In this document: positions 1,141 through 24,080 of the stretch, piece by piece
How the letters are laid out: every line of letters begins with the position of its first letter
Position numbering within the stretch: the stretch's first letter is position 1
From: Gammaproteobacteria bacterium
Lineage (GTDB): Bacteria; Pseudomonadota; Gammaproteobacteria; Eutrophobiales; Eutrophobiaceae
Assembly (NCBI GenBank): GCA_965261165.1
Contig: OZ253445.1
Coordinates: forward strand, 973,987-1,037,986
Reading direction: 5' to 3'
DNA: 64,000 nucleotides
The notes under the pieces: generated by a model
Databases searched by the model: none
What the model saw: the letters and a program-made list of their open reading frames with translations, nothing else
What the model was told of the DNA's origin: nothing
Made by a program: the position numbers and the translations under genes

Positions 1141-1436
1141 ATCTCATTCTTTGCAACAGGATCTATGAGGATCTTGTTCATTGAAGTAGTTATTAATTTT
1201 GCAGATAGATGAAATACATCCTTACCGCTCACATTAGTTTTCTGTCACAGGCGATCTAAATTGCGCGTCTGAAAATCTCTCGGATGATTCGACAATCTGT
1301 ATTAACGAAAAGACATTGAATGACTCCCCTTGGATTTGTAACTCACCATTTTTTTATGACTAAACGTGTTAATCACATATCGTCTGGGATAATGCTTGTA
1401 ATTTCGTTAAACAATTCAACGCTACTTTAATTGTGA

Positions 1437-1475
1437 GACCTTTGCATAATTCACACTAATTCTACCAATGTTTAA
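1437..1475 (+). repeat. Dispersed repeat family partial copy D
   Basis: gacctttgcataattcacactaattctacc matches the start of copy B (35821-35855). Confidence 0.45.
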
Positions 1476-2074
1476 GATACTCATCCTTACTAGCATGGGA
1501 TGACCTAAGTGATGAATATACTGAAACAAATGCGTTATTTGGAGGCGCATTGCGTCTGAATGTTCGATAATTGAGAGGTTTTTATGGTGTTGATGTGACG
1601 ATTGAGGGAAAATTCTCGCAAAACGAAACCTTTTCATACAAACTTTATATAATAATGATGTTGCCTATATGATATTACCTGTACATTTTGTTCGGTGGTT
1701 TTGAATTATGCAAAAGTCTCATTGTATTTTTATGTTTGTTTTCCAGCAAATGAATTTGCTCAATAATATTTTGTTTCTCATCTTTTAATTTTTGCAGCTC
1801 AATGACGGTTTTTCTATTTATCTTTATCTCTCTTTTATAGAGTATCGAGTCGCTGTGCTTATTGTATTAGCGGCACATAAAGAACGGTAAGGAATAAGAA
1901 AAAAACAGATGCGGCCAAGGATAAAGTGAGATAATAAATATTGTTATTTGTATTGTCTCGTTGTTCCTTTGTTATTAAATTGATGTCTGTTTCATCAGGA
2001 TGCCGAGAAACATATTTTAGTGCATCAACCGTAATCCCCCAATTATTTAGTAATGTCAGAAATGGATTAATGTT

Positions 2075-2323
2075 TTATCTGAGCACAAGAAAGAGCTCGA
2101 CTTGCAACTTGTTTGCTTGTTTATCATGACCAACAATTTGATGATCATAATAAACTTGATTCTGACTAAAAGGGGTTCTACGATTCAGTTCAAAACCAAG
2201 CGCTTCCCTGAGGTTTGATTCAGCTGCTGATGGAAACGACAGCGTCTTCTTAAGCAGTATATTTTCAGGGGCAACTAAAACTAATTTTGCATGTTCTTCC
2301 TGGGTAAGCTGTGTCTGTTTCAT
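2075..2323 (-). pseudogene. GspL-like N-terminal (cytoplasmic domain) fragment
   Basis: 82 aa; VLVAPENILLKKTLSFPSAAESNLREALGFELNRRTPF parallels the GspL N-terminus (VLLLPAEQVLLLSVTLPKM..LAQALPYLLEEQL); remainder of the gene missing. Confidence 0.35.
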
Positions 2324-2663
2324 TATGCTCCTCTTTCTTGGTGGTTAGAGAAAGCTGTGAATAATAACGCAGCTTACCCGCTAACCAACTCATTAAGAGT
2401 TGCACTTAAAAATTGAATTCATATTATAAATCTAAACGATAAATTATATTCAGTTGTTTACAGTAATATCCGAGAAAAATGAATTTCCATCATATTTTCA
2501 TATCACTGCCATATTTGAGCCACATTGTTACTGCACTATATAACTCTCACTAGAATTAATTGGAGTTAAAATGAAAAATACGATCACTGCTTTTAAAGAT
2601 GAATCTTTCTTTGATTCTGACACTATTCATAAAAACCAGATTCTACAGCACCAGGCTATAGAT

Positions 2664-2670
2664 CCCCCCC
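2664..2670 (+). repeat. Poly-C tract (7 nt) inside a degraded small ORF region
   Basis: gatccccccctaag; surrounding frames 2571-3030 read as fragments of one gene split across two frames. Confidence 0.4.
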
Positions 2671-3055
2671 TAAGTTTACCTTAAGGATGGTCTTCAGAAA
2701 TATTATTATTTCATTGAAGAACAAAGGAATAATATCGAGCAACTACGTTCCCTGAAATTACATATACAAGCTACAGGGAAAATATGCCAGAAAGCTTGGC
2801 ATTGGGGTCGATTTTATAAATCATTTCATCCTATGCATGAATCATTCTGACTAACCACCTGGCGGAAAACGACAGATGATGAGAAACGGGTTCGTTTCAA
2901 TGAACAATTAAACTATTTGGCGACTCAGACTATTCGATTTAAATATGCGTACGAATTTTTATTAAAAATTGAAGATAGGTTTTGGCGTTATAAAAATAAT
3001 ATTCAAGTTTATGATTCAACATCCTAACTTATGTTATCTATCCTGGAATATAACC

Positions 3056-3436
3056 CTAATAAAAAAGATGCTCTGCGATATAGGCAAAGAAAAAACCTAC
3101 ACACAATATTCCTACTGAAATCCAATATAGCCAACAGTTCCATTGATGTGCCTTGGTACATAAGGCAGCTAACCCTGGATCAGTGGGACAGACACGCCCT
3201 GGTCGATAAAGTAACCAACCTCCTAAAAAAAATAATAAACATGATCCAGTAAATACCCATTTTTTGTGTAAGCTCAGAGTGATCAGAAATGGTAGATTAG
3301 ATGCCATAGCAGCAACTACAGCGCCCATGCCCAGACTTACAAGCATGATAGGTAAAGCACAACACAATAAGGTGCCGACAGAAGTAAATAAAATAAGCCA
3401 GCCCCATTTTTTTTGTTCGAGTTCTTGTTTTCGCAT
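3056..3436 (-). CDS. merT: MerT-like thiophilic-metal inner-membrane transporter
   Basis: 126 aa, 3 TM; vicinal CC in TM1 (GTLLCCALP), second Cys pair in loop (YRPGRVCPTDPGLAALC), C-terminal FY as in MerT. Confidence 0.65.
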   Translation of the reverse strand: MRKQELEQKKWGWLILFTSVGTLLCCALPIMLVSLGMGAVVAAMASNLPFLITLSLHKKWVFTGSCLLFFLGGWLLYRPGRVCPTDPGLAALCTKAHQWNCWLYWISVGILCVGFFFAYIAEHLFY

Positions 3437-3462
3437 GATTGATCTCTTAAAAAAAGTAACAC

Positions 3463-4341
3463 CTAAAAAGTTATGCCTATGGCAATTGAAAATTCAGAGC
3501 CACGAGAGTTGCTAATACCACTCTTTTTTTCATACACAGAATGTTTGTATTCAGTACGAAACATAAAGTTATCTTTGTAGAGAACCAATACAGGCCCCAT
3601 CTGTATCCGCTGCCCGCCTGAAGCTGTAGTTAAAGTAGCACTATTTGGATCATCATTATAACGAGCTGTTATATCCCACATTACAAAGACACCGGAATTT
3701 GTTTCATTACTATGAAAGGGGTGATAACCTAAATTGATGTCCAACCCGAGTTCATCTCCTTCATTCATTCCATGCTCGCCTTCTGTATTGAGCCAGTAAA
3801 TGAGATCGATCAACGTGTAATATTTAGGGCTTTCGCTACTGTAAGAAAAGCTTAATCCCAAATCCACACTACCATCACTAATGGGGAAATCTCCGGATGA
3901 ACTACCTGTAGGGACACGAACTGAAGGAGTAAAACTAAAATTTTCCGTGAATGCTCTTTTGTTGCGGTAGTATTTCAAGGGTAAGCCCAAGATCAGATCG
4001 CCTGGGCCAGCATTTGATTGCCGTACTCCAACGCTAGCAATTTTCTTTGTTCGTCTTTGCTCGACATAGGGTAATTTGAATGTTGCACGAATAGAACGAT
4101 CAAAAGTGTAAATACCTTCCAGCCATAGTGTCTCTACATAGCGTTTTAATCCAAGAGGATTAGATATCTCGGAATCTCCATCCATTAAATCATTTGATCC
4201 ATAATTCTGATAACGAACCTGATAACCAAATCCTTCACTCCAGCGAGGCGCCATATCCATGACCGGTTGATGTGCTGATACTGAAAATGAACATATCCAG
4301 ATTGACAATAAGAAAAGTGATTTTTTTATTTTAAGCACCAT
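3463..4341 (-). CDS. Outer-membrane beta-barrel protein (signal peptide, C-terminal Phe)
   Basis: 292 aa; cleavable signal peptide MVLKIKKSLFLLSIWICSFSVSA; alternating amphipathic strands; ends ...IAIGITF; 11-nt overlap with the upstream gene (translational coupling). Confidence 0.55.
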   Translation of the reverse strand: MVLKIKKSLFLLSIWICSFSVSAHQPVMDMAPRWSEGFGYQVRYQNYGSNDLMDGDSEISNPLGLKRYVETLWLEGIYTFDRSIRATFKLPYVEQRRTKKIASVGVRQSNAGPGDLILGLPLKYYRNKRAFTENFSFTPSVRVPTGSSSGDFPISDGSVDLGLSFSYSSESPKYYTLIDLIYWLNTEGEHGMNEGDELGLDINLGYHPFHSNETNSGVFVMWDITARYNDDPNSATLTTASGGQRIQMGPVLVLYKDNFMFRTEYKHSVYEKKSGISNSRGSEFSIAIGITF

Positions 4342-4789
4342 CTGCCTTATGCAGCGTCACCTTCCCATCAGCATCACTCACATAAGCCTCGACTGGCTCA
4401 TAGCCACCTTTAAGAATGGATTTAAAGACTTGCTCTAGATCTAAGAGGTCATTAGGTTTGATAGCAATGGTAACTTTTTGATCTTCAATTTCGACTTTCA
4501 CACCTTTCGTGTATTTTGATTTGTCGATAAATGGAAGTTTCGATAAATTACGCGTAACCCCTTGTGAACAGAAAGAGCAGACTATTCCATGCACAATAAT
4601 GACAGTTTCGCTCGGTAGTACAGATACATCAGCAGCGTCAACAGGCTTATCAAATCTTGGTTTAGATTTATGATCATGCCCTTCGAACCCATTGTGTTCA
4701 GCATAAACGGGAATTGATCCCACTGAGATAAACAGCACGAATGCTGAAAGAATTTTTCTTTTAAACATAACAACCTCATTTTTAAACAT
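4331..4789 (-). CDS. Periplasmic heavy-metal-associated (HMA) domain protein, MerP/CopZ-like, with His-rich N-terminus
   Basis: Signal peptide, EHNGFEGHDHKSK His-rich stretch, HMA motif HGIVCSFCSQG (GxxCxxC); 21-bp tandem duplication at the 5' end creates two in-frame Met codons. Confidence 0.6.
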   Translation of the reverse strand: MFKNEVVMFKRKILSAFVLFISVGSIPVYAEHNGFEGHDHKSKPRFDKPVDAADVSVLPSETVIIVHGIVCSFCSQGVTRNLSKLPFIDKSKYTKGVKVEIEDQKVTIAIKPNDLLDLEQVFKSILKGGYEPVEAYVSDADGKVTLHKADGA

Positions 4790-4868
4790 AACAACCTTAT
4801 AATAAACAAACTAATTCTTTAAATACGCTGATGCATAACTCCTGCATCACTCGTATCTCACTTCAGAT

Positions 4869-5222
4869 TTAAAGTATTATTTTTGGAGGTCGTATCGGTG
4901 GTGAGGAACTATTGGGAACTGTATGTTCGTTCTGAAGAAATTGGACTGATTGTTGAATCATTTGCACGATTATTAACGACGAATTGGAAATAAATACTAT
5001 TGAGCTACTACATATATTCATATCCTGACAGCAATTATTTGATGAGCTATCTGAAGACTTTTTTTGATCGGTATGACAATTATTACTTATCGTGTCTAAG
5101 GGCGTCTGCTGTGTATCAGTCTTATCAGACATGTCACAGCAACGTAGTACACTGCCTGCAGTTACATTTAGCGCAAAACTACAGAGTACAACAAGGTAGA
5201 TTATTCCAGATAGCTTATGCAT
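4869..5222 (-). CDS. Small secreted Cys-rich protein (candidate metal-binding, first gene of the metal operon)
   Basis: 117 aa; signal peptide MHKLSGIIYLVVLCSFALNVTAG; CC...C.H...CC...C pattern; low complexity so real translation is uncertain. Confidence 0.3.
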   Translation of the reverse strand: MHKLSGIIYLVVLCSFALNVTAGSVLRCCDMSDKTDTQQTPLDTISNNCHTDQKKSSDSSSNNCCQDMNICSSSIVFISNSSLIIVQMIQQSVQFLQNEHTVPNSSSPPIRPPKIIL

Positions 5223-5346
5223 GCTTTCAAGTTTAGTCCGATTACAGTAAAAAAAGATACACTAACGTGTTAGTAATTGGATTTATAGCAAAGTTCAATG
5301 GACATTGGGAACTGCAAGTTATAGCAGACTTACTTTGTTTTTTTCT

Positions 5347-5800
5347 TCACATACAAATCCGTGATACTACCGGCCTGTATCTCTGCTGAGAAATTAAGTG
5401 TTTCAGAAAAGGTGGGGATGAGGATGAATCGTTAGACTTATATCTTCCCAATCTGCGCCCATTTCTAATGCTAATACGGCTTCGGCGATTAGTCCCCCCC
5501 CCCCCCCGCATTTGGACCAACAATACCTGCGTCAAGTATTCGCTGATTGTCTGGATTCCATAATATTATTGTCAACCCTTCATCACGACCAATACTCAAG
5601 GCACGGCCACTGGCGGCCCAGGGGGAAACAGATTTTTCATATTTAATATGAGCTTTTCTTAGCATCGGTTTCTGCCAATTCCATCCATGCGAGCTCAGGA
5701 TCAGGGTACGCAGCTGAGGGAATAGTTAAGGCATCAAAAGATAAACCTACCCCAGTTTGACTCACCCTTTCTAAAAGGGACGGTTGTCCTAGAGGAGAGT
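5347..5800 (-). pseudogene. lpd: Dihydrolipoamide-dehydrogenase-like (pyridine nucleotide-disulfide oxidoreductase) C-terminal pseudogene with at least three homopolymer frameshifts
   Basis: Across three frames it reads ...FDALTIPSAAYPDPELAWMELAETDAKK / KAHIKYEKSVSPWAASGRALSIG..ILDAGIVGPNAG / LIAEAVLALEMGADWEDISLTIHPHP / TFSETLNFSAEIQAGSITDL. This is collinear with the Lpd C-terminus (FPWAASGRA...IVGxNGGEL..LAIEMG.DAEDIALTIHAHPTL...GSITDL). Frameshifts sit at the A4, C15 and G4 runs; the N-terminus is replaced by an IS3 fragment. Confidence 0.6.
5488..5502 (+). repeat. Poly-C tract, 15 nt
   Basis: agtccccccccccccccccgcatt; lies inside the lpd-like pseudogene at a frameshift point. Confidence 0.8.
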
Positions 5801-5821
5801 GAAGATAACAAGAGCAATAAG

Positions 5822-5975
5822 AAAGAGATTTAAGTGCGGAATTTAAACAAGAAGCGGTGAGATTACTGGAGCAAGGCGATAAAGAAGTCTCGCAGTTAGC
5901 CAGAGAACCGGGTGTTGCTGATGATGTTTTGTGCGCTGCCATTGAAGGTGGTGTCTATGGCCTTGACACGTCGTA
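5822..5975 (+). mobile_element. IS3-family transposase OrfA N-terminal fragment (remnant)
   Basis: Translation RDLSAEFKQEAVRLLEQGDKEVSQLAREPGVADDVL matches the IS3 OrfA HTH start (FSAEFKxEAV...); no start codon, stops after 51 aa. Confidence 0.55.
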
Positions 5976-6123
5976 AGCCATCTCGGCTGTAGTCTACTAC
6001 TCTGCCACTTGGTAAGGTCATCTGGGTAATATGGTCGCCATCGTCATAGAGATAACCCATCTTGTAGCGGGTGCCTTGGCTTTCGGTAAAGCTACCGTTG
6101 CTTATGTTGCTATTTAAAACCAA
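5976..6123 (-). pseudogene. Rhs YD-repeat stub (duplicated leader of the Rhs module, truncated by the IS3 fragment)
   Basis: LVLNSNISNGSFTESQGTRYKMGYLYDDGDHITQMTLPSGRVVDYSRDG; 5' region 6060-6200 is about 95% identical to 9262-9402. Confidence 0.6.
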
Positions 6124-6347
6124 AGAATACTTTCCTAGTTATGTTTCCTGGCCATGCTCTAAACTCCTTTTCAATTAAATAATTCTGTCACCTTTTTCAC
6201 AGTAATCAGATTAAGGGGCTTGTCACAAACTAATAATTTATTTCAACATCATTAAAAAAAGACGCGGCCCGTTTAATTCAGGGCTAGGGTAATTCTGTTC
6301 GTTATTTATACCGGTTTAAATATCTAATTTGGTACATTTGCCTTTAT

Positions 6348-6686
6348 CTATCCGCCAGTAAATATGGTTAAGGAGACGCCTCCACAAACAACCCAATCAA
6401 TAAAAATAAAAAAAAGAATATATTTACGATAAATTAAAAATTTATCATTAACCTTAAAACATAAGGCATATAAGACAACACATAATAATACTATTGGAAT
6501 CAATGAAAACAGTGATTCACGCACAAGAATAAATGGAGATAATCCAAATAAAATTAATGCAGATATAGTAGTAAAGAATGTTGAAAAAGCTAATTCTTTA
6601 AATAAAAAAAACAATAAGAAGATTAGATATACACCAATTCCGGCATATAAAATATCTTTAAGAAAGCTTTTAATTCTTACATCCAT
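6348..6686 (-). CDS. Putative Rhs immunity protein, small polytopic membrane protein
   Basis: 112 aa, 3-4 TM helices, immediately downstream of the Rhs C-terminal toxin ORF on the same strand. Confidence 0.45.
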   Translation of the reverse strand: MDVRIKSFLKDILYAGIGVYLIFLLFFLFKELAFSTFFTTISALILFGLSPFILVRESLFSLIPIVLLCVVLYALCFKVNDKFLIYRKYILFFIFIDWVVCGGVSLTIFTGG

Positions 6687-6704
6687 AACAGAGTAATCAA
6701 GGAG

Positions 6705-7367
6705 CTACTTCTGATCATTAAAATAGTTATATGATTCAATAGCTGCTGGAATACCTTCAAATGCTGGACCACCTGTATCCCAGAATGTATGACCAAGAAC
6801 GTCTAACATATCATCCAAATCATATTCACTAACTGGTCCATCTGGCATGGGATATTCATCAGGGGTGCCTTTACAACCTGCATATTTATGATTTTCATCT
6901 ACAAGCCCTCCATCATCATCATAAAAGCATTCTGCAATTGGACCTTCATCACATTTATCATCCCTTACCTCAAGGAATCCCCTAAAACCACAATGGAATA
7001 CGCGAGGATCACCAACATAAGGTTTCCAATCAGAATTATGTATTGGCGGTAAAGATGGACACGATGCAGTTAATCCATTTATATCAACTCCAATAATTGG
7101 ATTTTGTTCTACATACCCATAGGTATTCATCCCACCTCTCAACCCTATCGGATCACTGGTAATATACCTGCCTAACTCAGGATCATAATATCTAAAGTGG
7201 TTGTAATGCAGATTAGTCTCCGCATCATAGTATTGTCCAGGAAAGCGAAGGTTGACACTGACACTGCCTGATGCTGGGGTATTCCCAAACGCCTCACCTT
7301 CCCAGCGCCAGATGACCTTACGTGCCGCATCGACAGGCAAGCCGCTCAAAGTAAAGAAACCATTCAC
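6705..7367 (-). CDS. Orphan Rhs C-terminal module: core tail (RVxWRxE..DPxGL motif) + about 130-aa toxin domain of unknown type
   Basis: KVIWRWEGEAFGN...RYYDPELGRYITSDPIGLRGGMNTYGYVEQNP marks the end of the Rhs core; the following domain (TASCPS...FHCGFRGFLEVRDDKCDEGPIAEC...GHTFWD...) has no motif I recognise; GTG start, no full-length rhs upstream. Confidence 0.65.
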   Translation of the reverse strand: MNGFFTLSGLPVDAARKVIWRWEGEAFGNTPASGSVSVNLRFPGQYYDAETNLHYNHFRYYDPELGRYITSDPIGLRGGMNTYGYVEQNPIIGVDINGLTASCPSLPPIHNSDWKPYVGDPRVFHCGFRGFLEVRDDKCDEGPIAECFYDDDGGLVDENHKYAGCKGTPDEYPMPDGPVSEYDLDDMLDVLGHTFWDTGGPAFEGIPAAIESYNYFNDQK

Positions 7368-7654
7368 GTCTGTGGTGGTGGTGACCCCACTATTTAAAAA
7401 GCTAATGCAATTAGGGTATTGCCTATACTTACATGAAACGATAAGACAGATTCATACTCGGCTAAGAATACTATTATCAATAGACTTGACCAGTTTATTC
7501 TACTCTTGGTGTCTTCGCGGAACTGACAGTACTCAATTACTCAGGCACTGCTCCGCTGTACTACCGGGGTGAATGCGCAATTCCCCGGACGGGACCTTAA
7601 TCCGCTAGATAGCTTGCTAGTAACGGCGTACTACCTGACCCCGTTGTTTTGACC

Positions 7655-8320
7655 TCAATGTGATAGTAAGAGATAAATTCTAAACCAATTTAATTGACAT
7701 TGATCATTTAATTGACATTGATCTAAACTAAATTCAAACCCAGACCTCACATCATAAACTCTATGATCATCTAGCATTTTTTTGTCATCATATCTGTAAG
7801 CGTAAAAAGAAGAGTTCTCAAACGAGGGTTTACCAAAAAAATATTTAATGTTAGAAACTTCTAAATCTAGCGATAATTCATTGACTTTCATCGTCTTGCG
7901 ATCAATTAAATTAGACTTTGCACATCTCTTTGGATCAGTAAAGTCAGCTTTCCCAATCCATATAGCGGTGATGGTACTCCACCCACCTAAAGGGCCAGAC
8001 TGAAATATTACACTGGTATCATCTTCTTCTGATCTATAGCAAATCAGTTTTGGAGAATAGTTTTTCCTATTTGGTCTATAAAACATCGACTCACCAAAAA
8101 TAGCAATCACTTCATCAAATGTTGATGTGCCTATTATTATATTTGCTATTCTTAAATAGCTCTTATCAATAGTTTTATTATCGTATCTTGAATCCCATCC
8201 TAGTTCACCTAGTTCAGGTAAAGCAAATGGAACATCTGCAACACTTGCGCATGAAATTAAAAAACACATAATGAAACTTAATGTTTTCCTTATATTCTTA
8301 CGTATGAAATTAATTTCCAT
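7655..8320 (-). CDS. Putative Rhs immunity lipoprotein (periplasmic)
   Basis: 221 aa; signal peptide with lipobox LISC; directly downstream of the toxin ORF 8323..9324; 18-bp tandem duplication at the 3' end gives LDQCQLNDQCQLN. Confidence 0.5.
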   Translation of the reverse strand: MEINFIRKNIRKTLSFIMCFLISCASVADVPFALPELGELGWDSRYDNKTIDKSYLRIANIIIGTSTFDEVIAIFGESMFYRPNRKNYSPKLICYRSEEDDTSVIFQSGPLGGWSTITAIWIGKADFTDPKRCAKSNLIDRKTMKVNELSLDLEVSNIKYFFGKPSFENSSFYAYRYDDKKMLDDHRVYDVRSGFEFSLDQCQLNDQCQLNWFRIYLLLSH

Positions 8321-8322
8321 AG

Positions 8323-9324
8323 CTACTGAACCGTCAAGGTACCACCGCCAGCAGCGTCAATTGCATTCCTTGTATTAAGCGAACATATTATGCATCCTTC
8401 AGAAGCCGATTGATTATTCTTTCCATTATCTCCATGCATTAAAAATGAATTTGGATCACGTGTTGATGGGAATTGATTATTACTTGGTGTAGGCATCAAC
8501 GGTAATGACTGCAAACCCGTTTTAGGATTATCAACACCAGTTCCAATATCATAATCTCCACGCGGGATAGGCCCTACATTAGGAACATTTTGTTGTAAAG
8601 GATCGTTTGTTGCTCCTGGTGCACCAGAGTAACACTGCTCATTTACATCCTGATTGCCTGTACTATCGTTGGTACAGATTAACTGACCACTAGCTTGATC
8701 GTAAGAACAGCTAACGGTTAATCCATTTATATCAACTCCAATAATTGGATTTTGATTCACATACCCATAAGTATTCATCCCGCCAATAATACCAATCGGA
8801 TCACTGGTAATATACCTGCCTAACTCAGGATCATAATATCTAAAGTGGTTGTAATGCAGATTAGTCTCCGCATCATAGTATTGTCCAGGAAAGCGAAGGT
8901 TGACACTGACACTGCCTGATGCTGGGGTATTCCCAAACGCCTCACCTTCCCAGCGCCAGATGACTTTACGTGTTGCATCGGTGGCGAGTCGGTTGGTCAG
9001 CAAATGGTCGGTGTGGAGGTAGATGATGCCTTCTGAGGGCATCCCTGCCTGTACAGGCATGCTGGCATCGATCTGTGCCACTGGATGCAGGCCTTGTTGC
9101 CAGATGTAATCTTTGATCAAGGCACCGGTCTCGGTGGTCTCGGTGATGAGATAACCCCGTTGGTCATAGTGATAGATGGTAATACTGTCTATGCTGATGC
9201 CATCACCTTGATAGACAGTCTTTCTGGTTCTCTGTCCGCTATCGTTATAGAGATAACTCATCTTGCAGCGGGTGCCTTGGCTTTCGGTAAAGCTACCGTT
9301 GCTTATGTTGCTATTTAAAACCAA
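8323..9324 (-). CDS. Orphan Rhs C-terminal module: YD-repeat core tail + toxin domain with YkuD/L,D-transpeptidase-like motif
   Basis: YD repeats, then DPIGIIGGMNTYGYVNQNP, then C-terminal domain containing FLMHGDNGKNNQSASEGCIIC, which resembles the L,D-transpeptidase catalytic HG...S.GC(I/V) signature; TTG start; no N-terminal Rhs portion. Confidence 0.65.
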   Translation of the reverse strand: MVLNSNISNGSFTESQGTRCKMSYLYNDSGQRTRKTVYQGDGISIDSITIYHYDQRGYLITETTETGALIKDYIWQQGLHPVAQIDASMPVQAGMPSEGIIYLHTDHLLTNRLATDATRKVIWRWEGEAFGNTPASGSVSVNLRFPGQYYDAETNLHYNHFRYYDPELGRYITSDPIGIIGGMNTYGYVNQNPIIGVDINGLTVSCSYDQASGQLICTNDSTGNQDVNEQCYSGAPGATNDPLQQNVPNVGPIPRGDYDIGTGVDNPKTGLQSLPLMPTPSNNQFPSTRDPNSFLMHGDNGKNNQSASEGCIICSLNTRNAIDAAGGGTLTVQ

Positions 9325-10164
9325 AGAATACTTTCCTAGTTATGTTTCCTGGTCATGTTCTAAACTCCTTTTCAATTAAATAATTCTGTCACCTTTTTCG
9401 GTGACAATCAATTAGTCGTGGTCTGTCTCTGGTTGTTTGATGAATGGGATGGATGATTGACGGGGTATTACCTGCCTCCGTGACTGAACATCGTATTGAA
9501 AATATTTATGTCTTGATGCTAATGCATGGTAACCACCAATCTGCTTGTCTTTGAATAGGTCATTTGCTGGTTCTGGTGAACATAAAGAGAAAATTGCTAA
9601 TGAAACAGAAAAGTAATTGTAATAAGGCGCAGGAATTCATCAACTACAGATGAATTTGTTTAGAAATTGAGCCATTTATCTCAAGAATTGTCTATCGGTC
9701 AGTCGGACGGGACACCTTAAATTTCATTCAACAATACTAATTTAACAATATTAAGATAAATTCCAATATTAAGATAAATTCCAATATAGTGACTACTGAA
9801 AAAATACACAGCGTGAACCATCCGCTAGCACGTTCTTATTTTTTATCATAATTCTCAATGATATAACTCGCCAAGAAATTCCCAGTGAGTACAGACAAAA
9901 CAAGAAAGGGAAGCGGGTATTTTGATGGATTACGCCCTAGATCGTCAATGTAATTAGTATAATAAAAGCAATACATTCCAAGGCTTACATTTACAGCACA
10001 AATCACCCTGTGATTAATCCAGCTCTCATCAAAAAAACTTAAGTAATTTGTTCGTCACTATTTAACCAATGCAATAAACGATCTTACAGGCAATTATCCG
10101 GTTCCGGCTGGCAATTCGGTGCACTTGGATTTATCTTACAATCTAATGAAGCGGCATTCGCATT

Positions 10165-10320
10165 AGAAATGCCAACTTGCAATCGTGCCGCCACTGATTA
10201 ATAAATCCAAGCCTAAGGCATCAATAACACGAACTGGGTCGTTCTCGCCGAGATAATCCTCTAGCCGCTCTGAGAATAACAGTTGTTGCTGGCGATTTAA
10301 TCCGCGTATGTAATCACTCA
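10165..10320 (-). mobile_element. IS1182/IS5-like transposase N-terminal fragment (remnant)
   Basis: Minus-strand translation MSDYIRGLNRQQQLLFSERLEDYLGENDPVRVIDALGLD matches the conserved N-terminus (LLPxxLDDYIxEDNPVRxIDAFVD) of this transposase family; about 50 aa only. Confidence 0.5.
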
Positions 10321-10478
10321 TAAAGCCTCTGTTTAATGATTAGAATCAGTTAGTTATGTTTGTTATTGTATCATAATTGGGCTAGGGTTTGGAGGTTTAT
10401 GCGTCCAAGTTTTCAGGTATTTTGCAGGGGCGGTGTATTAGCTTGAAATGCCAGCAACGTCGGTAAATTAGGGCAGTA

Positions 10479-10841
10479 ATGAGAATGCGCATAGGGGTAG
10501 TGGGTTTGTTGCACAGTCTCTTGGCTGGAGTCACGCTCGAAGACTTACCTTATGAAAAATTCATCAAACTTTATGACAAACCAAGCACGCTATTTTATTT
10601 AGATCCGCCCTACTATCATTCGGAATCATGCTACGGTGCTAGCTTATTCAGCAGAGAAGACTTCATGCACATCAGAGATATGCTTAGCGAGATAAAAGGG
10701 CGTTTCATCTTGTCGCTCAACGATGTTCCGGAAATACGCAAACTATATAAAGACTTCAATATTGAGATAGTCGAGACTAGATACACAATCAATGTAAAGG
10801 GGAAATCCCCAAAAAGAAACGAACTTCTCATCTCGAACTAA
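10479..10841 (+). pseudogene. Dam-type N6-adenine DNA methyltransferase, C-terminal half only
   Basis: FYLDPPYY (DPPY motif IV) and downstream region collinear with the E. coli Dam C-terminus; SAM-binding N-terminal half absent or frameshifted upstream. Confidence 0.55.
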
Positions 10842-10949
10842 TGGATATATCTCTAATCAAGAGCGTATTACCGACCAGAGGAGCAAACTAAAAGGCCTGC
10901 TGCTGACTAGAACAAACAGGGCTAGGGAGCAATACTTAGCCAAGAAAAC

Positions 10950-11046
10950 GAGCTAAAAATCCCACGAAATCCCAGGGTAATCCCACATAATCCCGTCAAC
11001 ACTTGTTTGATTTTGATTCCGTTTTATTCCGTTTTATTCCACTGCA
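10950..11046 (+). repeat. Iteron-like short direct repeats (AATCCCA x4 at about 10-11 bp spacing; ATTCCGTTTT x2.5)
   Basis: aaatcccacgaaatcccagggtaatcccacataatcccgtcaac ... gattccgttttattccgttttattcc. Confidence 0.4.
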
Positions 11047-13399: not shown

Positions 13400-14677
13400 T
13401 CACCGGCTAATGGCATGGTGCCCAATGTCCTTTCGATAAAACATTCCATCCCAGTTGATCTTTGCCACTGCCTGATAAGCTAACTGCTGTGCCTGCAACA
13501 CTGTTTCACCAAGTGCTGTCACACACAAAACACGTCCACCTGCTGTTATCACATCATTATCTTGTTTTGATGCTCCGGCATAAAAGACTTTCGTTGTCTC
13601 TGGAAAGTCATTATTCAGTCCTGAAATTATATCGCCTTTGCTAACGCTAGCCGGATAGCCCGCCGATGCCAACACAACTCCTAGGGCAGCTCGTTCATCC
13701 CAGTTTGCTGTCACTTCATTCAATCTTCCATTCAATGCTGATTTGCACAGATCAATCAGATCGCTTTTCAAACGCATCATAATGGGTTGCGTTTCCGGAT
13801 CACCAAAACGGCAATTAAATTCCAGTACCTTGGGTGTGCCATCTGCAATAATCATAACGCCTGCATAGAGAAACCCGACGTATTCACGACCTTCTTCGGC
13901 CATGCCTCTGATCGTAGGTTCGATCACTTCACGCATAATACGATCATGCATTTCATCTGTGACCACGGGCACTGGAGAATATGCGCCCATGCCTCCTGTG
14001 TTGAGTCCTTGATCGCCTTCATCTCTTGCCTTGTGATCTTGAGAACTCGCTAATGGCAAAATATTTTTACCATCGGACATAACGATAAAACTGGCTTCTT
14101 CACCCTGCATGAACTCTTCGATAACAACACGATGCCCGGCATCACCAAACTTGTTTCCAGTCAGCATATCCTTAATAGCAACAATGGCTTCATCCTCTGT
14201 CATTGCAATAATGACGCCTTTGCCCGCAGCTAGGCCATCCGCCTTGACCACAATTGGCGCACCTTTTTCTTTCACGTATGCTTTTGCGGCACCGATTTCG
14301 GTGAATACCCGATATTCCGCCGTGGGGATATTGTGTTTTTGTAAAAAGTCTTTACTGAAGGATTTCGAACCTTCAAGAATTGCTGCTTTTTTTGAGGGAC
14401 CAAAACAGGCCAGACCAGCTTGTTGGAATTCATCGACTATACCGTCAACTAGTGGAGTTTCCGGACCAATGATGGTGAGGTCTATTTTTTCATTTTCGGC
14501 ATAGGCTTTCAGTGCTGAAATATCTTCAGCACCAATATTGATATTACTCACTTTATCTTCACTAGAAGTTCCAAGATTACCCGGCGCAACAAATACCTGC
14601 TTCACCCGATCTGACTGCGCTGCCTTCCATGCCAAAGCATGTTCCCGGCCACCACCACCAACAATTAATACTTTCAT
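13400..14677 (-). CDS. purD: Phosphoribosylamine--glycine ligase
   Basis: 425 aa, ATP-grasp PurD. Confidence 0.9.
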   Translation of the reverse strand: MKVLIVGGGGREHALAWKAAQSDRVKQVFVAPGNLGTSSEDKVSNINIGAEDISALKAYAENEKIDLTIIGPETPLVDGIVDEFQQAGLACFGPSKKAAILEGSKSFSKDFLQKHNIPTAEYRVFTEIGAAKAYVKEKGAPIVVKADGLAAGKGVIIAMTEDEAIVAIKDMLTGNKFGDAGHRVVIEEFMQGEEASFIVMSDGKNILPLASSQDHKARDEGDQGLNTGGMGAYSPVPVVTDEMHDRIMREVIEPTIRGMAEEGREYVGFLYAGVMIIADGTPKVLEFNCRFGDPETQPIMMRLKSDLIDLCKSALNGRLNEVTANWDERAALGVVLASAGYPASVSKGDIISGLNNDFPETTKVFYAGASKQDNDVITAGGRVLCVTALGETVLQAQQLAYQAVAKINWDGMFYRKDIGHHAISR

Positions 14678-16240
14678 TTAATGCAAAAAATGTCTCATGC
14701 CAGTAAACACCATGGCTATGTTTGATTCATCCGCGGCTACAATCACTTCATCATCACGCATAGAGCCACCTGGTTGAATAATCGCCGTCACACCCACTTT
14801 TGCAGCTGAGTCTATCCCGTCCCGAAATGGGAAAAAGGCATCCGAGGCCATTACTGAACCAGCAATCTCAAGACCTTCATCTTCCGCTTTGATCGCAGCG
14901 ATACGCGCACTGTAAACCCGACTCATTTGACTGGCGCCGATACCCAATGTTTGTTTCTCTCTGGCATAAACGATGGCATTCGATTTCACATATTTCACGA
15001 CCTTCCAAGTAAATAGCAGATCTTCAATTTCTTTTTCTGTCGGCGGGCGTTTACTGACGATCTTCAGATCGCCTCTTTCAATAATGCCTCGATCATTATC
15101 CTGTATCAGTAAACCACCACTCACCCGTTTCATTATTAACTGCTGTATCTCATGCTCTCTTATGCCGGCTTCAAGAATTCGGATATTCTCCTTGACAGAA
15201 ACAATATCCAGTGCTTCTTGACTGATAGATGGCGCAATAATGACTTCGACAAACTGCCGATTAATAATTGCTTTAGCTGTTGCTGCATCAAGCGGACAAT
15301 TAAATGCAATGATGCCTCCAAAGGCAGAAGTCGGATCTGTCTGATAGGCATGTTCATAGGCCTGAAGGGCATTATCACCCACAGCAACACCACAAGGATT
15401 TGAATGCTTCACAATCACACAGGCAACTTCCTCATAAGATAATACACATTCAAGCGCGGCATCAGTATCAGCAACATTATTATAGGAAAGTACCTTGCCC
15501 TGTAATTGTTTTGCTCCAGCGAGTGTCCCTGAAGGTGGATTTGGCTGTCCATAAAATGCGGCACTTTGATGTGGATTTTCGCCGTAGCGCATGTCTTGAA
15601 TCTTCTTGAATTGTGTTGAGAAAGTCAGTGGATAATTCAAGTCATCACCCTCTGTCGTAATAGCACTCAAATAATTTGAGACGTTGGCATCATAGTTTGC
15701 CGTATGTGCAAATACCTTTTGTGCCAGAGAGAATCGTGTCGCATCAGTTAATGCTCCCTCATTCGTATCAATTTCATTAATGATATCTTTATAATCAGAT
15801 GCATTGACAACAACACCTACATAGGCATGATTCTTTGCCGATGAACGCAACATTGTCGGACCGCCGATATCAATATTTTCAATAGCATCGGCTAATGCGC
15901 AATCAGCTTTATTCACTGTTACTTCAAACGGATAAAGATTAACAACCACAAGGTCAATCGGATCAATATTGTTTTCGGCCATGACCTTATCATCTGTGCC
16001 ACGCCGACCCAACAAACCGCCATGAATTTTGGGATGCAATGTCTTGACTCTGCCATCCATAATTTCAGGGAAACCCGTATGATCTGAAACCTCAACCACC
16101 TCAATACCATTATCTGCAAGAAGACTGGCTGTCCCTCCCGTGGATAAAATGATGATATTGCGACTTACCAATTGACTAACAAATTCAACGATGCCAGTTT
16201 TATCAGAAACGCTGATAAGTGCTCGTTTGATTTTGTTCAT
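14678..16240 (-). CDS. purH: Bifunctional AICAR transformylase / IMP cyclohydrolase
   Basis: 520 aa, MGS-like + AICARFT domains; stop abuts purD start. Confidence 0.9.
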
Positions 16241-16295
16241 AAAATTAGGTGGCTCTGAGATAACTATTGATGATATTGGAATAATCCCAACTGCT

Positions 16296-16580
16296 TTATT
16301 CCAGATCGTACTTCTTTAATTTTTTACGTAAAGTTGCTCTGTTGATGCCTAATATTTCCGCAGATTTTGTGATGTTTCCTTGCGTCTGTTTCAAAACAAC
16401 TTCAAGCATAGGCCTTTCAGTCTGGGATAACACAAGCTCATAGAGAGCGCTTGGATCGTGACCATCCATATCTTCAAAATAAAGTTCTAGAGCACTTTCT
16501 ACACAATGCTGTATAGATTGAGTACGTTTCCCTTTGTACTCTTTTTGTGATGTTTTTTTACCACTCGGCTTAACCATCAT
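16296..16580 (-). CDS. fis: DNA-binding protein Fis
   Basis: 94 aa, C-terminal [27 protein letters not shown]; 4-nt overlap with dusB. Confidence 0.9.
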
Positions 16581-17563
16581 GCTGCTAATGCTTCTCCATT
16601 ATTTATCGCACTAAAATAATTATTTGTCACGAGCAATTGTTTCTTGATACTCTCTAATTTATTAACCCTGCTACGCAATACCTCTCCATTTTCGAGATAT
16701 TTGCTGTAACAGCCAACATGTTTTCGTGCGACACGTACACCTATGTATTCACCATATAATTCGTACAGACTGTATAGATGCTGCAGCACAACTTGTTGAA
16801 CCTCCTTAGTGTCTGGCCTTGATAAGCGGATACCTATTTTCAGGAAATAGCTAATTTCATTGAATATCCATGGATTTCCCAAAGCAACTCGCCCTAGCAT
16901 GATGCCATCTACCCCCGTTATATGTAAGACCTCCACAGCTTTTTCTGGCGCTGTTATATCACCATTGGCAATCACTGGAATTGAAACATTATCTTTTACT
17001 TGTTTGATTGCTTGATATTCCGCTTCGCCCTTGAAACCACAAGCGCGGGTTCTGCCATGCACTGTCAACATTTAAATGCCTGAATTTTCTGCAATCTGTG
17101 CGATCTTGACTACATTCTTATTTTCTTTGTTCCAACCTGTCCGCATCTTCAGTGACACTGGCATATCCACCGCATCGACCACACTTTGCAGTATTTTTGT
17201 GACCAGTTTCTCATCCTGCATAAGTGCTGATCCAGAAAATACATTGCAGACCTTCTTGGCTGGGCAACCCATATTGATATCAATGATTTTTGCGCCGAGA
17301 TCAGCATTATGCCTGGCTGTATTTGCCATCGCTTGTGGATCTGCGCCAACAATCTGTACCGCACGAGGGGTCTCTCCCTCATAGTGATTCAGTCTTAATT
17401 GCGATTTTTTAGTGTCTCGGTATACTGGATTGGATGCCATCATTTCAGACGCAGCAAGACCCACGCCGTGCATTCTGCATAGCTGTCGAAATGGTTTATC
17501 TGTCACCCCCGCCATAGGCGCAAGCAACAGATTGTTATCGAGTGTGTATGAACCTAATCTCAT
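16577..17563 (-). pseudogene. dusB: tRNA-dihydrouridine synthase B interrupted by in-frame TAA (split into 163-aa and 164-aa ORFs)
   Basis: ...KIAQIAENSGI*MLTVHGRTRACGF... versus E. coli ...CGIQALTIHGRTRAC; the stop replaces the conserved Gln codon (CAA to TAA) and is followed immediately by ATG (TAAATG at 17069-17074). Confidence 0.8.
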
Positions 17564-17635
17564 TTCCTGACCGCTTCTAATTATTCTGGCGGTTATTTTG
17601 ATTGGGGACGGGAATCATAACATGACAACAGATGA

Positions 17636-18538
17636 TTAGAGGAAATGAAATTCGAAACTGACTGCACTTTCTGCCGGCGCAACCACTTCTAATACGAAAT
17701 GAATTGGTGATTCTGGCACCATTCCCGCTGGAATATCAACGCTCTCATTCAGATACTCTCTTGGCTTAAATTCCCTGTAACCAATGACTTTGCCGCCAGT
17801 ATTGAACAGAGCAAGCTGAATCCGTGGGAATGGCTGAATGGTTGCCGATTTATTTGCCATGGTCGCATTTACCAACAGCCTACCCTTATCCTCGTACAAT
17901 GGGTGATTTCGCACATCACGGTTTAACAGTTTAATGGCGCTGATATCCTTGTACCTAAGTACTTGGCACTGTAGCCTGTCGCAAATTTTTCTGGCAACAG
18001 GGCCTAATTGTGAGTAACGCAACAATAATTCATCTCGGTTAAACCATGCCAGCTGCGCAATAATGCTGATCAATAACAATAATACGCCAATTCCCCAGCT
18101 TATTGTCGCCAATATATTTCGCTTTATCGGCAGGTCTTCACGTAATTCATTAGGAATGTCTCCAAGAATCTCATATGGGTATTCACTCAGAAAGTCTATT
18201 TCCTCGCTATTCGCTATCTTAGAGCTAGCCTTCTTGTCAGACTCACCTTCATCAGGTCTATTTTCATTAGGGATTACAAATTCAGGCTCTTCATTTAAAT
18301 CCGCTCCTACCAATGAATTTTTTGCAGTCACATAATCAAATTTAGAACTCATTTTATCAGGCATTAGTGGAACATCGCTCAAGCGAGAAAGTGCGTTAAA
18401 TTCATGGCCACAGACCCCACACCTAACCCGACCATCGGCAATGGATAATTGCGATGCTTGAATACGAAATTGTTTCAGGCAACTGGGACAAGAGGTAAAC
18501 ATCCTTCCAGTTAACGATGGTGATTCTGAGTTTTGCAT
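17636..18538 (-). CDS. MJ0042-type zinc-ribbon / DUF3426 domain protein
   Basis: 300 aa, N-terminal CPSC...CGVCGH zinc ribbon, central TM; conserved position between prmA and dusB. Confidence 0.6.
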   Translation of the reverse strand: MQNSESPSLTGRMFTSCPSCLKQFRIQASQLSIADGRVRCGVCGHEFNALSRLSDVPLMPDKMSSKFDYVTAKNSLVGADLNEEPEFVIPNENRPDEGESDKKASSKIANSEEIDFLSEYPYEILGDIPNELREDLPIKRNILATISWGIGVLLLLISIIAQLAWFNRDELLLRYSQLGPVARKICDRLQCQVLRYKDISAIKLLNRDVRNHPLYEDKGRLLVNATMANKSATIQPFPRIQLALFNTGGKVIGYREFKPREYLNESVDIPAGMVPESPIHFVLEVVAPAESAVSFEFHFL

Positions 18539-18569
18539 TAATCTTTGACTACAGAATTATCTTGAACAT

Positions 18570-19451
18570 TCATTTTCTAGTTCCGTGCAGTAATGACCAC
18601 TCTTGTTTGAATATAGGCTCATCCATATTAAACCAGCTTCGATATGCCTCCAAACATTCCTCGGCCTGGGTCGATAATAAGCCAGATAGCACCAGATCTC
18701 CTGCTGGCAGCACCAATTGTGAAAATAGACTGGCTAATTCCTGTAATGGATTCAACAAAATATTTGCGACTAGAATATCCACAGCCGGTAGCCGAATATT
18801 ATCAGGATGCGCTATAACCAAACGATCAGTAATTCCATTTCTTTTTGCATTTTCTTTGCTGGCTTGCAAGGCTTGTGAATCAATATCGACCGCATAGACT
18901 TTTGCCGCGCCAAGTTTTATAGCCGCCAACGCCAGAATGCCAGAGCCACTTCCAAAATCAATGACGATTTTATCTTTGATATCGTTTCCGGCTAACCATT
19001 CAAGATGGGCAGCAGTCGTTTCATGTGCGCCGGTACCAAAGGCCAGACCAGGATCAAGGATAATGTGAGGAATATCATCGCGCGGTAGTTCACACCAGCT
19101 AGGACAAACGCATAAGTGATCTGCAAATATTTTTACGCCGTGAGCAGATTTAAATTCGTTAACCCAATCACGATCTTCCAACATTGCTATCTCATGCTTG
19201 CCGATCTTGCCCTCACCAACACGATTACGCAGGCACACGAGCAATGTATCCAGATCGGTATCTTCATGAAGTAGAGCCATAACTTGTGTTTGTTGCCACA
19301 ACACCAGATCTTTTTCTATTGCCTGACCAAATATTTTTTCATTATTCATCGCCGTTAGGCTAATAGAAACTGCGCCGAATTGTTCGAGGAGTTCAGATAA
19401 CTGCTCAGCACTTTCAAGATCACTTTCCAGTATAAGCTGCAACCAGGGCAT
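18570..19451 (-). CDS. prmA: Ribosomal protein L11 methyltransferase
   Basis: 293 aa, PrmA family, SAM motif DFGSGSGILA. Confidence 0.9.
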   Translation of the reverse strand: MPWLQLILESDLESAEQLSELLEQFGAVSISLTAMNNEKIFGQAIEKDLVLWQQTQVMALLHEDTDLDTLLVCLRNRVGEGKIGKHEIAMLEDRDWVNEFKSAHGVKIFADHLCVCPSWCELPRDDIPHIILDPGLAFGTGAHETTAAHLEWLAGNDIKDKIVIDFGSGSGILALAAIKLGAAKVYAVDIDSQALQASKENAKRNGITDRLVIAHPDNIRLPAVDILVANILLNPLQELASLFSQLVLPAGDLVLSGLLSTQAEECLEAYRSWFNMDEPIFKQEWSLLHGTRK

Positions 19452-19504
19452 ATTTAGGGTAACTCTATAAATTCCGGGCGAAGTAGATTGATAAATGTGA
19501 CCTT

Positions 19505-20848
19505 TTATTTTAGCCCTAACTCGTCTTCCAGATAGTGAATGTCTGTTCCACCAGCCATAAATGCGGCATTGGTAATCAGTTTTTGATGCAACAGTATGTT
19601 GGTTTTGATCCCATCGATAACGATTTCTGATAGTGCTGTCGACATACGCTTCAAGGCCAGATTACGATCATCACCATGGACAATTAATTTACCAATCATG
19701 GAGTCATAATGCGGCGGCACTTTGTAGCCTTGGTAGACGTGTGTATCAACGCGCACACCCGGCCCACCTGGCGGATGATAATGCTCAATCGTTCCAGGTG
19801 ATGGCATGAAAGTTTCCGGATCCTCGGCGTTAATTCTACATTCAACAGCGTGGCCTCTAATTTGAATATCTTCCTGTTTGTAAGTGAGTTCATTACCATT
19901 GGCAATTCGTAATTGTTCCTTAACAATATCCACGCCTGTGACTAATTCAGTGACTGGATGCTCAACCTGAACACGAGTGTTCATTTCGATAAAATAAAAA
20001 TTGTCATTTTCATATAAAAATTCGAAGGTTCCTGCGCCGCGATAAGCAATACGTTGACAGGCTTTGACGCAACAAGCCCCGATGGTATTCCTGACTTTTT
20101 CTGTAATGCCTGGCGCTGGCGCTTCTTCGATAACTTTTTGATTCCGACGTTGCATAGAACAATCTCGTTCTCCAAGATGAATGACATTGCCATGCTCATC
20201 TGCCAGCACCTGAACCTCAACATGTCTTGGATGCTGTAAAAATTTCTCCATATAAACCATGTCATTGCCAAATGTTGTTGTTGCTTCAGCTTTGGTCAGC
20301 GAGATTGCATTCTTTAATGCTGCCTCACTGTTCACCACACGCATACCTCGGCCGCCGCCTCCACCAGATGCCTTAATAATAACCGGATAACCAATGTCTC
20401 GTGCAATCTGGAAAACACTTTCTGAATTCTCACTGATAGAACCATCGGAACCAGGCACGCACGATACACCGGCTTCTTTCATGGCCGCAATTGCTGAAAC
20501 CTTATCCCCCATAATACGAATGGTCTCAGCACGAGGACCGATGAAGATAAATCCACTTTTTTCAACACGTTCTGCAAAGTCAGCATTTTCTGAAAGGAAA
20601 CCATAGCCAGGGTGTATGGCCACTGCATCGGTCACTTCAGCCGCACTAATCACAGCAGGAATATTAAGATAACTTTCAGATGATGCCGCTGGACCTATAC
20701 AGACTGATTCATCTGCAAGGAGTACATGTTTTTGCTCCCTATCTGCTTCGGAATATGCCGCCACCGTCTTAATGCCCAGTTCTCTACAGGCACGAAGTAT
20801 ACGGAGTGCAATTTCGCCACGATTGGCAATGACAATTTTTTCAAGCAT
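19505..20848 (-). CDS. accC: Acetyl-CoA carboxylase biotin carboxylase subunit
   Basis: 447 aa ATP-grasp biotin carboxylase; no accB upstream. Confidence 0.9.
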
Positions 20849-20854
20849 GATTCC

Positions 20855-21025
20855 TCTAAAGAAAATTTCTACGAATTGAGACTTTTACATAATCCGCACT
20901 GATTCTACCGAAACAGGAACAATAAGACCATTCTAAAAACCTTAAGGATTATTCATCATGTCTTGGAAAGAATATCCCGAAAAGAATATCCCGTAGGACT
21001 ACCCAAGGTTGGTTCGCAGATATGC
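20855..21025 (+). repeat. Dispersed repeat family copy A (about 170 bp), immediately upstream of accC
   Basis: ttacataatccgcactgattctaccgaaacaggaacaataagaccattctaaaaaccttaaggattattcatc...cccgtaggactacccaaggttggttcgcagat; about 75-80% identical to 35813-36000. Confidence 0.6.
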
Positions 21026-21243
21026 CTTTAGTAGGACATCAATCAATAAAGATTTAGCTGAAAAAAGCATTATTGTTGTGATAGGCCCTATCAATAGCAT
21101 TGATGCCACTGTTTGCGAGGTGCAACAATGTTGGATGAAAAAGAATAAACAAAAGAATAAACATTAAAGAACAAACAAGGGCACAATACCCAAGACCCAC
21201 AAGCAACATACAATATAAAGACCATAGCAGACGGCAAGCATAA

Positions 21244-21253
21244 CCCCCCCCCC
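21244..21253 (+). repeat. Poly-C tract, 10 nt, intergenic
   Basis: cataaccccccccccgatgg; followed by ttttgttcggtggtttt, which also occurs at 1687-1703. Confidence 0.7.
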
Positions 21254-21515
21254 GATGGATTTAAGCGTTTTGTTCGGTGGTTTTATGATGTGAAGGTCTT
21301 AATGTTGGTGTTCATGGTTCTTATAGTGCGTACCATGGTTGTGAAAATGCTGATTAGCCTCGAAACCAGAGGGTTTATTTCGTTGGTGTATTCGGGTCGG
21401 TGATCTGCCTGACTGTCTCATAGTCAATGCAGTTAAATCAAGGTGGAGAGATTATTTTACATTGCTTATCCGAGACAGCCGCAAACTTTTATTCGGTGCG
21501 GCAATGGAGCCGTTC

Positions 21516-23859: not shown

Positions 23860-24080
23860 ATTTAGGCGGGTATCAACCGCAGTGTCGCTACAAACCTCAG
23901 AACTTGAACCGTGAGTTCAAGTGGGAAGTAATCATGACATATCAGGCTCCCCACGAATGGATGTGCACACAACGTCAAAAATCAGATTCCCTTAGTAGTA
24001 TAGATAGGCTCAAGTCACCACCAGCCTGCTCACGAACACCGCAGAAAATACCCTAAACTGCTTGTCGCTACTCCAATTCG
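23860..24080 (-). ncRNA. ssrS: Candidate 6S RNA
   Basis: About 220-nt non-coding gap immediately downstream of zapA on the same strand, which is the conserved ssrS position. The minus-strand RNA ends with ...CUUGAACUCACGGUUCAAG... resembling the E. coli 6S 3' hairpin CCUUGAACCAAGGGUUCAAGG. Its central part GCGGUGUUCGUGAGCAGGCUGGUGG resembles E. coli GCGGUUGGUGAGCAUGCUCGG. Confidence 0.45.

Follow-up and report, generated by a model that had tools for sequence, protein, structure and literature searches.

DusB is an FMN enzyme that makes dihydrouridine-17 in E. coli tRNA, and in E. coli and Salmonella its gene has fis directly downstream. In E. coli the two genes lie 25 nt apart, dusB is translated ~100–150 times less than fis, and full-length mRNA is produced even though dusB is so sparsely translated (PMC5318159, PMC10516669); the translation efficiencies are 0.02 for dusB and 2.06 for fis (PMC5318159). 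For fis to be translated efficiently, E. coli needs the dusB ORF in cis (PMC4751926), and the E. coli AU element (Nafissi, 2012, quoted in PMC5318159 and PMC4751926) is the basis of the analogy that we draw below for an AU-rich stretch. Environmental V. cholerae has natural DusB variants without dihydrouridylation activity, and V. cholerae DusB has been assigned an NADPH-oxidase role in oxidative stress (PMC12700106).

Interruptions of such a gene can be set beside several kinds of described system, among them the nonsense pseudogenes, disabled by a single lesion, of dispensable bacterial housekeeping genes. Enzymes with a (beta-alpha)8 fold can be active in pieces, the halves of HisF being one case of fragment complementation. 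TIM barrels tolerate such complementation in TrpA as well, where fragments 1–188 and 189–268 restore activity (PMC7008512). Termination-reinitiation is efficient at overlaps or very short distances only (PMC10666635), and the pairs studied by Huber et al. (2019, 2023) have overlapping or abutting stop and start codons and are conserved as two genes, often coding for the subunits of a complex.

Here we describe a dusB-fis locus from a gammaproteobacterial contig, within a stretch of 64,000 nucleotides that we analyzed as a whole and call the window, in which dusB is interrupted by an in-frame TAA. The locus resembles that of E. coli and Salmonella in its gene order, with fis directly downstream, and in a conserved AU-rich dusB 3′ end; whereas in E. 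coli 25 nt separate the genes and their translation differs ~100-fold (PMC5318159), in the window they overlap in an ATGA and dusB is interrupted. The likeness to the pairs of Huber et al. lies in the adjacent stop and start codons (0 nt), but the dusB junction is a mutation inside one gene and no relative has it. As in TrpA, the break falls at an inter-unit loop and the active site is shared by the pieces; however, the TrpA and HisF pieces were made in the laboratory or by proteolysis, whereas the DusB pieces are known here from sequence alone. With the single-lesion pseudogenes the locus shares one transition-made stop in an otherwise collinear gene and a conserved synteny, although this dusB has neither a second lesion nor a measurable rise in dN/dS, and the neighboring core genome is not decaying. 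If dusB belongs with these pseudogenes, it is an isolated member and a very young one.

Results and Discussion

The reading frame of dusB

Direct reading of the minus strand gave a dusB frame of 328 codons (17563..16577) that is collinear with its orthologues and contains one internal stop, the joined translation being ...KIAQIAENSGI*MLTVHGRTRACGF.... The stop is a TAA at codon 164 (17074..17072, minus strand), it is followed at once by an ATG (17071..17069), and the DNA around the TAA|ATG junction reads ...TCAGGCATTTAAATG.... At this point the ORF finder splits the gene into two abutting ORFs on the minus strand. The N-terminal fragment (17563..17072, 163 aa) consists of 163 codons plus the TAA and comprises beta-alpha units 1–5, and the C-terminal fragment (17071..16577, 164 aa) consists of 164 codons plus a TGA and comprises beta-alpha units 6–8 and the C-terminal helical tRNA-binding domain. 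When compared with the Pfam Dus profile (PF01207, 311 positions), the former matches positions 1–152 (E = 2e-51) and the latter positions 154–301 (E = 6e-39), so that together they span 1–301 of the 311. The joined protein aligns without gaps with residues 1–318 of E. coli DusB (PDB 6EI9, E = 2e-99), whose Gln164 (...CGIQALTIHGRTRAC...) stands opposite the stop.

A first-pass annotation, made from the letters of the window, had described a gene collinear with E. coli DusB in which a conserved Gln codon was replaced by TAA and followed by ATG; the gapless alignment agrees with the collinearity, and direct reading bears out both the sequence and the coordinates. What is split is a genuine orthologue that contains a single in-frame stop, not a chance pattern of ORFs. 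The TAA at codon 164 deprives the gene of the single uninterrupted frame that would encode both the barrel and the helical domain of DusB, and the change from CAA is a disabling lesion when set against the intact orthologues, as expected of a pseudogene. Translation of the whole gene revealed no further stops or frameshifts, and its length is exactly conserved. For annotation purposes, a single disrupted dusB is the right label for both ORFs, and not two genes of the Dus family.

Origin of the stop codon

To place the stop among its homologues, we used a search of 5.8 billion proteins, in which all the dusB homologues found were uninterrupted, the closest being 83% identical and 328 aa long. 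We aligned 110 full-length DusB homologues of 320–345 aa (mostly 328 aa), which are 72–83% identical within the clade. The column at codon 164 holds Q in 105 of them, K in two, R in two and A in one, with no interruption in any. In the DNA of the relatives, the site and its two neighboring codons read ATT/ATC-CAA-ATG in L001, L002, and L004 and ATT-CAG-ATG in L003, L005, and L007, and the ATG that encodes Met165 is invariant in all the close relatives. The comparison with orthologues that the first-pass annotation had suggested thus yields CAA or CAG followed by ATG, and a stop in none. Judged from these codons, the dusB stop was created by one C>T transition (CAA>TAA), and because the ATG is ancestral in all close relatives, it was not acquired together with the stop. 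Furthermore, the gene order accC-prmA-DUF3426-dusB-fis-purH-purD is common to the window and to the loci of the nearest relatives.

We then looked for the same event in other places. A degenerate DNA pattern with either TAA or TAG fixed at codon 164 had no match in the JGI metagenomes. A search with a window-specific DNA pattern with N at the mutated base, intended to recover more genomes of the same species, gave no match, and a scan of genome contigs for that species gave nothing closer than 81%. As for the position of the stop within the gene, 133 one-step nonsense changes are possible in dusB and in four of them (3%) the next codon is ATG; when only transitions are counted, this holds for one of 22. 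The probability that a stop would be followed by ATG by chance is therefore ~0.03–0.045, which makes the juxtaposition uncommon, and rarer than chance, yet it is a single post-hoc observation.

Selection on dusB and its genomic setting

The pairwise dN/dS of dusB between the window and L001 is 0.115 (dS 0.875), and that of the intact relatives among themselves is 0.09–0.14. As the value for the window is not above those of the intact relatives, any neutral phase must have been short; if dusB had been neutral for more than a few percent of the branch, we would by inference expect a visibly higher dN/dS. Of the 90 columns that are invariant in the other 110 sequences, 85 are kept in the window. 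The five replacements (A34V, L48Y, T137S, T185A, and W285C) are the most found in any of the 111 sequences, the next highest count being four and most being zero, and in this alignment they are a weak hint that the constraint on the window dusB may have been relaxed. In Tajima-type counts of lineage-specific changes, dusB has 2.6–3.6 times those of L001, versus ~1.8 times lineage-wide, and the acceleration specific to dusB was not significant when compared with six neighboring genes pooled (Fisher p = 0.11–0.30). In the region 13400–20848, compared with L001–L005, the window has ~1.8 times the lineage-specific amino-acid changes of L001, its nearest relative, in most of the neighboring genes, fis and purD being the exceptions, and these counts suggest that the lineage may evolve faster in general. 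Since the dN/dS of dusB is not raised and 85 of the 90 invariant residues are kept, the stop is young on the scale of the divergence from known relatives, or the gene is still constrained.

Taken with the origin of the stop, these results lead us to conclude that the split of dusB is probably a recent CAA>TAA nonsense mutation, which has produced an ordinary young pseudogene with Fis expected to survive. Pseudogenisation was one of the alternatives listed in the first-pass annotation, and it is the best supported of them, as the lesion derives from one transition and the relatives are intact. Several observations weigh against this conclusion: nothing besides the single stop speaks positively for decay; in relative rate, dusB does not significantly exceed the lineage-wide 1.8 times; the stop is followed by ATG in just 3% of the possible nonsense mutations; and a break in a loop at a beta-alpha boundary with an ATG adjacent to it is the best arrangement for an enzyme made of two pieces.

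If dusB is a young pseudogene, it would have stayed in place for two reasons, the short time available for decay and the fis signals contained in its 3′ end. Full-length DusB would no longer be made, its activity would presumably be lost, and the loss would be tolerated. Such a loss is biologically plausible, since inactive natural variants of DusB are documented in V. cholerae (PMC12700106). The consequence would be one more dispensable tRNA-modification gene lost, which in itself matters little. The interruption suggests that, in the absence of compensation by a further Dus enzyme, the organism may lack the dihydrouridine that depends on DusB (D17 in E. coli), and, going by the work on V. 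cholerae, it may also have lost the NADPH-oxidase function of DusB in oxidative stress. The teaching value of the case would be that the sequence of dusB can persist as a carrier of signals for the expression of fis.

The rest of the window provides the setting of the mutation. Between 11 and 64 kb, all of the ~45 core-gene ORFs that we checked by means of profile matches are full length. These include hemF, hisB, hisH, purD, purH, prmA, accC, rpiA, ilvA, pepP, and ubiH; glnS, purC, fba, pyk, btuB, smc, zipA, ligA, and nadB; and rpoE-rseAB, degP, lepA, lepB, rnc, era, and recO. A scan of the window for other pairs of ORFs split by one in-frame stop gave true neighboring genes only. Remnants of genes are confined to a low-GC island at 1–11 kb, so the genome reduction that the first-pass annotation had offered as a background to pseudogenisation is not evident. 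Genome reduction is not the setting of this mutation, and dusB is an isolated casualty.

Expression of fis downstream of the interrupted gene

The fis gene (16580..16296, minus strand) is intact and encodes 94 aa, of which residues 51–91 match HTH_8 (E = 4.5e-15); this match confirms the first-pass annotation in placing fis downstream of dusB. The product is 72–80% identical to those of the relatives over its full length, with dN/dS of 0.08–0.18, and it has the features of a Fis protein, namely a length of ~95–100 aa, a C-terminal HTH_8 and a gene directly after dusB, the position that fis also occupies in the relatives. The start codon of fis and the TGA stop of dusB overlap in an ATGA (16577..16580, minus strand) that is conserved in all close relatives. 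On the same strand, the last codons of dusB include an AU-rich stretch (16598..16624), whose nucleotide conservation in the alignment of the relatives makes it a candidate translational enhancer of fis, and a Shine-Dalgarno-like GGAG (16594..16597) that precedes the fis ATG by 13 nt, a long and poor spacing. Synonymous-site identity reaches 0.84 in the last 18 codons of dusB, as opposed to 0.62 gene-wide, and the third-position identity of these codons is attained by five of the 310 18-codon windows. This analysis indicates that the dusB 3′ end at 16594–16624 likely embeds a cis signal for the translation of fis. A search for an internal fis promoter turned up nothing on the minus strand within dusB, and its matches as a whole did not exceed those in shuffled sequences.

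The first-pass annotation stated that the expression of fis depends on translation through dusB, and it concluded that a premature stop could alter the levels of Fis. This is right insofar as the sequence of dusB is needed in cis in E. coli (PMC4751926), but it is too strong, as in that species dusB itself is barely translated and lies 25 nt from fis. Given the ~100-fold lower translation of dusB than of fis in E. coli, we do not expect Fis to be lost here. We also considered the RNA itself: the mRNA of the C-terminal half of dusB contains 15.8% C and 24.8% G, with C exceeding G in no window, and because it is G-rich, the loading of Rho on it should, by this heuristic, be poor. We infer that Fis is probably still made despite the stop in dusB. 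Its transcription would start from a promoter upstream of dusB; the 3′ half of the gene, whether left untranslated or translated again, would offer Rho a G-rich and poor substrate; and the mutation leaves untouched the AU-rich/GGAG region that is conserved ahead of the fis start codon.

A further element could be added to the pseudogene, although we consider it rather improbable: that fis is coupled to dusB through the ATGA, and that reinitiation at Met165 keeps ribosomes flowing toward fis and has let the allele spread. The C-terminal ORF would then stay open for the sake of Fis rather than of DusB. All close relatives have the ATGA overlap where E. coli has a spacer of 25 nt, and the 13 nt between the GGAG and the fis ATG are a poor spacing. 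Coupling needs an overlap or a very short distance, and the juxtaposition of the dusB stop with an ATG has a chance probability of only ~0.03–0.045. The argument from juxtaposition, however, is a single post-hoc one; the AU-rich element suggests that fis has initiation signals of its own, as in E. coli; and, with a G-rich 3′ half, polarity through Rho is unlikely even if that half goes untranslated.

Could the two fragments form an enzyme?

In the AlphaFold model of an 83%-identical homologue (P0002, pLDDT 88.7), residue 164 lies in a short loop, and the break is thus predicted to fall in the loop between helix 151–161 and strand 165–169, where beta-alpha unit 5 gives way to unit 6. The N-terminal fragment carries the catalytic Cys100, which is strictly conserved and aligned with that of E. 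coli DusB, as well as the invariant Lys139 and Arg141, while the C-terminal fragment carries the FMN-binding residues His169, Asn200-Asp202, Gly224, and Arg225 together with the helical tRNA-binding domain (catalytic and FMN-binding roles according to PMC5814906). C100, K139, R141, H169, R171, N200-D202, G224, and R225, the catalytic cysteine and the FMN-binding residues among them, are all retained in the window. Because the active site is divided between them, neither fragment can act alone, and any activity would need their assembly. The first-pass annotation held that a split in the middle of the barrel makes two functional halves unlikely; this was overstated, given that the break lies in a loop between two units and that TIM barrels tolerate fragment complementation (PMC7008512).

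As to the translation of the second fragment, the first-pass annotation observed that a stop followed by a start allows termination-reinitiation, and the distance of 0 nt between TAA and ATG is indeed within the efficient range (PMC10666635). Genuine coupled pairs are conserved as two separate ORFs, and in this respect dusB differs, since it is one ORF in every relative examined. The ancestral Met165 codon (17071..17069, minus strand) is a possible reinitiation codon, and the only Shine-Dalgarno-like motif before it is a weak AGG 7 nt upstream. At 14675–14680 (minus strand), the junction between purH and purD has an identical TAAATG, and abutting stop-start pairs are therefore used natively in this genome.

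It is thus conceivable, if unlikely, that translation terminates at the TAA and reinitiates at the ATG, and that the two fragments, made in about equal amounts, assemble into an active two-chain DusB. Apart from the 0-nt distance, which suits efficient termination-reinitiation (PMC10666635, PMC6728339), and the precedent of purH-purD, this would agree with a break in the loop from helix 151–161 to strand 165–169, between units of the barrel in a fold for which complementation is known (PMC7008512), with the retention of 85 of 90 invariant residues, the catalytic ones included, under an unraised dN/dS, and with an ATG that follows only 3% of random nonsense mutations. Against it stand the five replacements at otherwise invariant positions, the weakness of the AGG before ATG165, and the fact that no relative is split and that the JGI metagenomes yielded no stop at the site, which leaves no evidence of long-term maintenance. 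A very recent mutation fits the data equally well. Moreover, stability and activity are usually lost when a monomeric enzyme without an evolutionary history as a heterodimer is cut into fragments, which also counts against a split DusB.

The fullest form of this idea, a natural two-gene DusB in which termination at the TAA and reinitiation at ATG165 give an active split TIM-barrel flavoenzyme and at the same time preserve the coupling to fis, is slightly less likely still. If true, it would show a tRNA-modifying enzyme caught during the fission of its gene. Given access to the genes or to the organism that bears them, the TAA|ATG junction would make a simple natural test bed for both reinitiation and fragment complementation.

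Authenticity of the mutation

The nonsense mutation that we favor supposes that the TAA is genuine, and a single base substitution separates the dusB of the window from an intact gene. The first-pass annotation had listed a sequencing error among its alternatives. Exact look-ups placed both half-proteins and Fis on two contigs, an NCBI contig of 2,125,472 bp that is presumably the source of the window and ENA ERZ26051151 ctg141392 (L081/L082), a metagenome contig of 8.4 kb that carries the same TAA. Among ~15 billion proteins the half-proteins are present on these two contigs only, and their 90%-identity clusters hold just those two. Outside a patch in prmA, the second contig differs from the window by one SNP (17348, synonymous, in dusB) and one single-base indel. 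The patch itself (window 18891–19306) is 415 bp long, is ~15% divergent from the window and has three frameshifting indels; it is 95.6% identical to L001 and ~85% identical to the window, a pattern that points to either inter-species recombination or a chimeric consensus of low coverage.

As a second contig from the same population also has the TAA, an error in the base call is unlikely, with the reservation that this contig is of limited independence, since it shares its population, and perhaps even its sample, with the window. We regard the mutation as almost certainly genuine. An artefact of sequencing or assembly, or else a minority allele, which would leave CAA as the true consensus and dusB intact, seems to us quite unlikely. 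Such an artefact would be helped by the modest quality of the second contig, with its “5x” coverage, its frameshifting indels in prmA and purD and its foreign-looking patch. On the other side, two separately assembled contigs agree at the base of the stop though they differ elsewhere, the L001-like donor of the prmA patch reads CAA where L081 reads TAA, and every other core ORF that we checked is intact, which argues against an error-prone consensus.

Is the stop codon recoded?

The first-pass annotation also mentioned read-through or recoding, which found no support in our analysis. In the window, TAA ends 19 of the 50 long ORFs, being the commonest real stop, with TAAA as the commonest stop context, and purH, which is as long here as in its relatives, is also terminated by TAA. 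UAA is recognized by both release factors. A 151-nt segment around the dusB stop folds no better than its shuffled versions (z = +0.82), and there are no tRNA genes in the 64-kb window. It is very improbable that full-length DusB arises by read-through, for instance with a suppressor tRNA that inserts Gln, even though the replaced codon is one for Gln, one step away from TAA, and rare read-through might supply some of an enzyme that E. coli needs at a very low level (translation efficiency 0.02), for TAA is an ordinary terminator in the window, no stable local structure surrounds it, the relatives lack the stop and the window holds no tRNA gene. We therefore rejected programmed read-through or recoding, given that TAA is the main genuine stop, that the RNA around it is unstructured and that the stop is not conserved.

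Other features of the window

Finally, we note some other features of the window. The island at 1–11000, with a GC content of 36–39%, contains a secretin reduced to its C-terminal domain (20–565), a T2SS M_b (706–1140), a Pyr_redox_dim fragment (5489–5665), and a C-terminal fragment of a D12 DNA methyltransferase (10479–10841). It also holds two C-termini of RHS-type toxins with a near-identical core (8323–9324, with a Tlde1 domain, and 6705–7367), and a duplicated N-terminal peptide at 5896–6123.

Upstream of accC, there is an ORF-free gap of 670 bp (20849–21515) in the usual place of accB, which is adjacent in L008. Neither a remnant of accB (tblastn) nor a cluster of DnaA boxes was found in this gap, which includes a C9 homopolymer at ~21246–21254; the GC skew changes sign near 20–24 kb. 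Farther along, a 6S RNA gene is located at 23870–24050 (minus strand). DksA (43221–44015, minus strand) has an N-terminal extension of ~130 aa with KKxAKK-type repeats that matches Pfam HC2 (histone H1-like) and is unusual for DksA. A cobalamin riboswitch (36284–36515, plus strand) lies upstream of a btuB-like gene for a TonB-dependent receptor (36641–38566).
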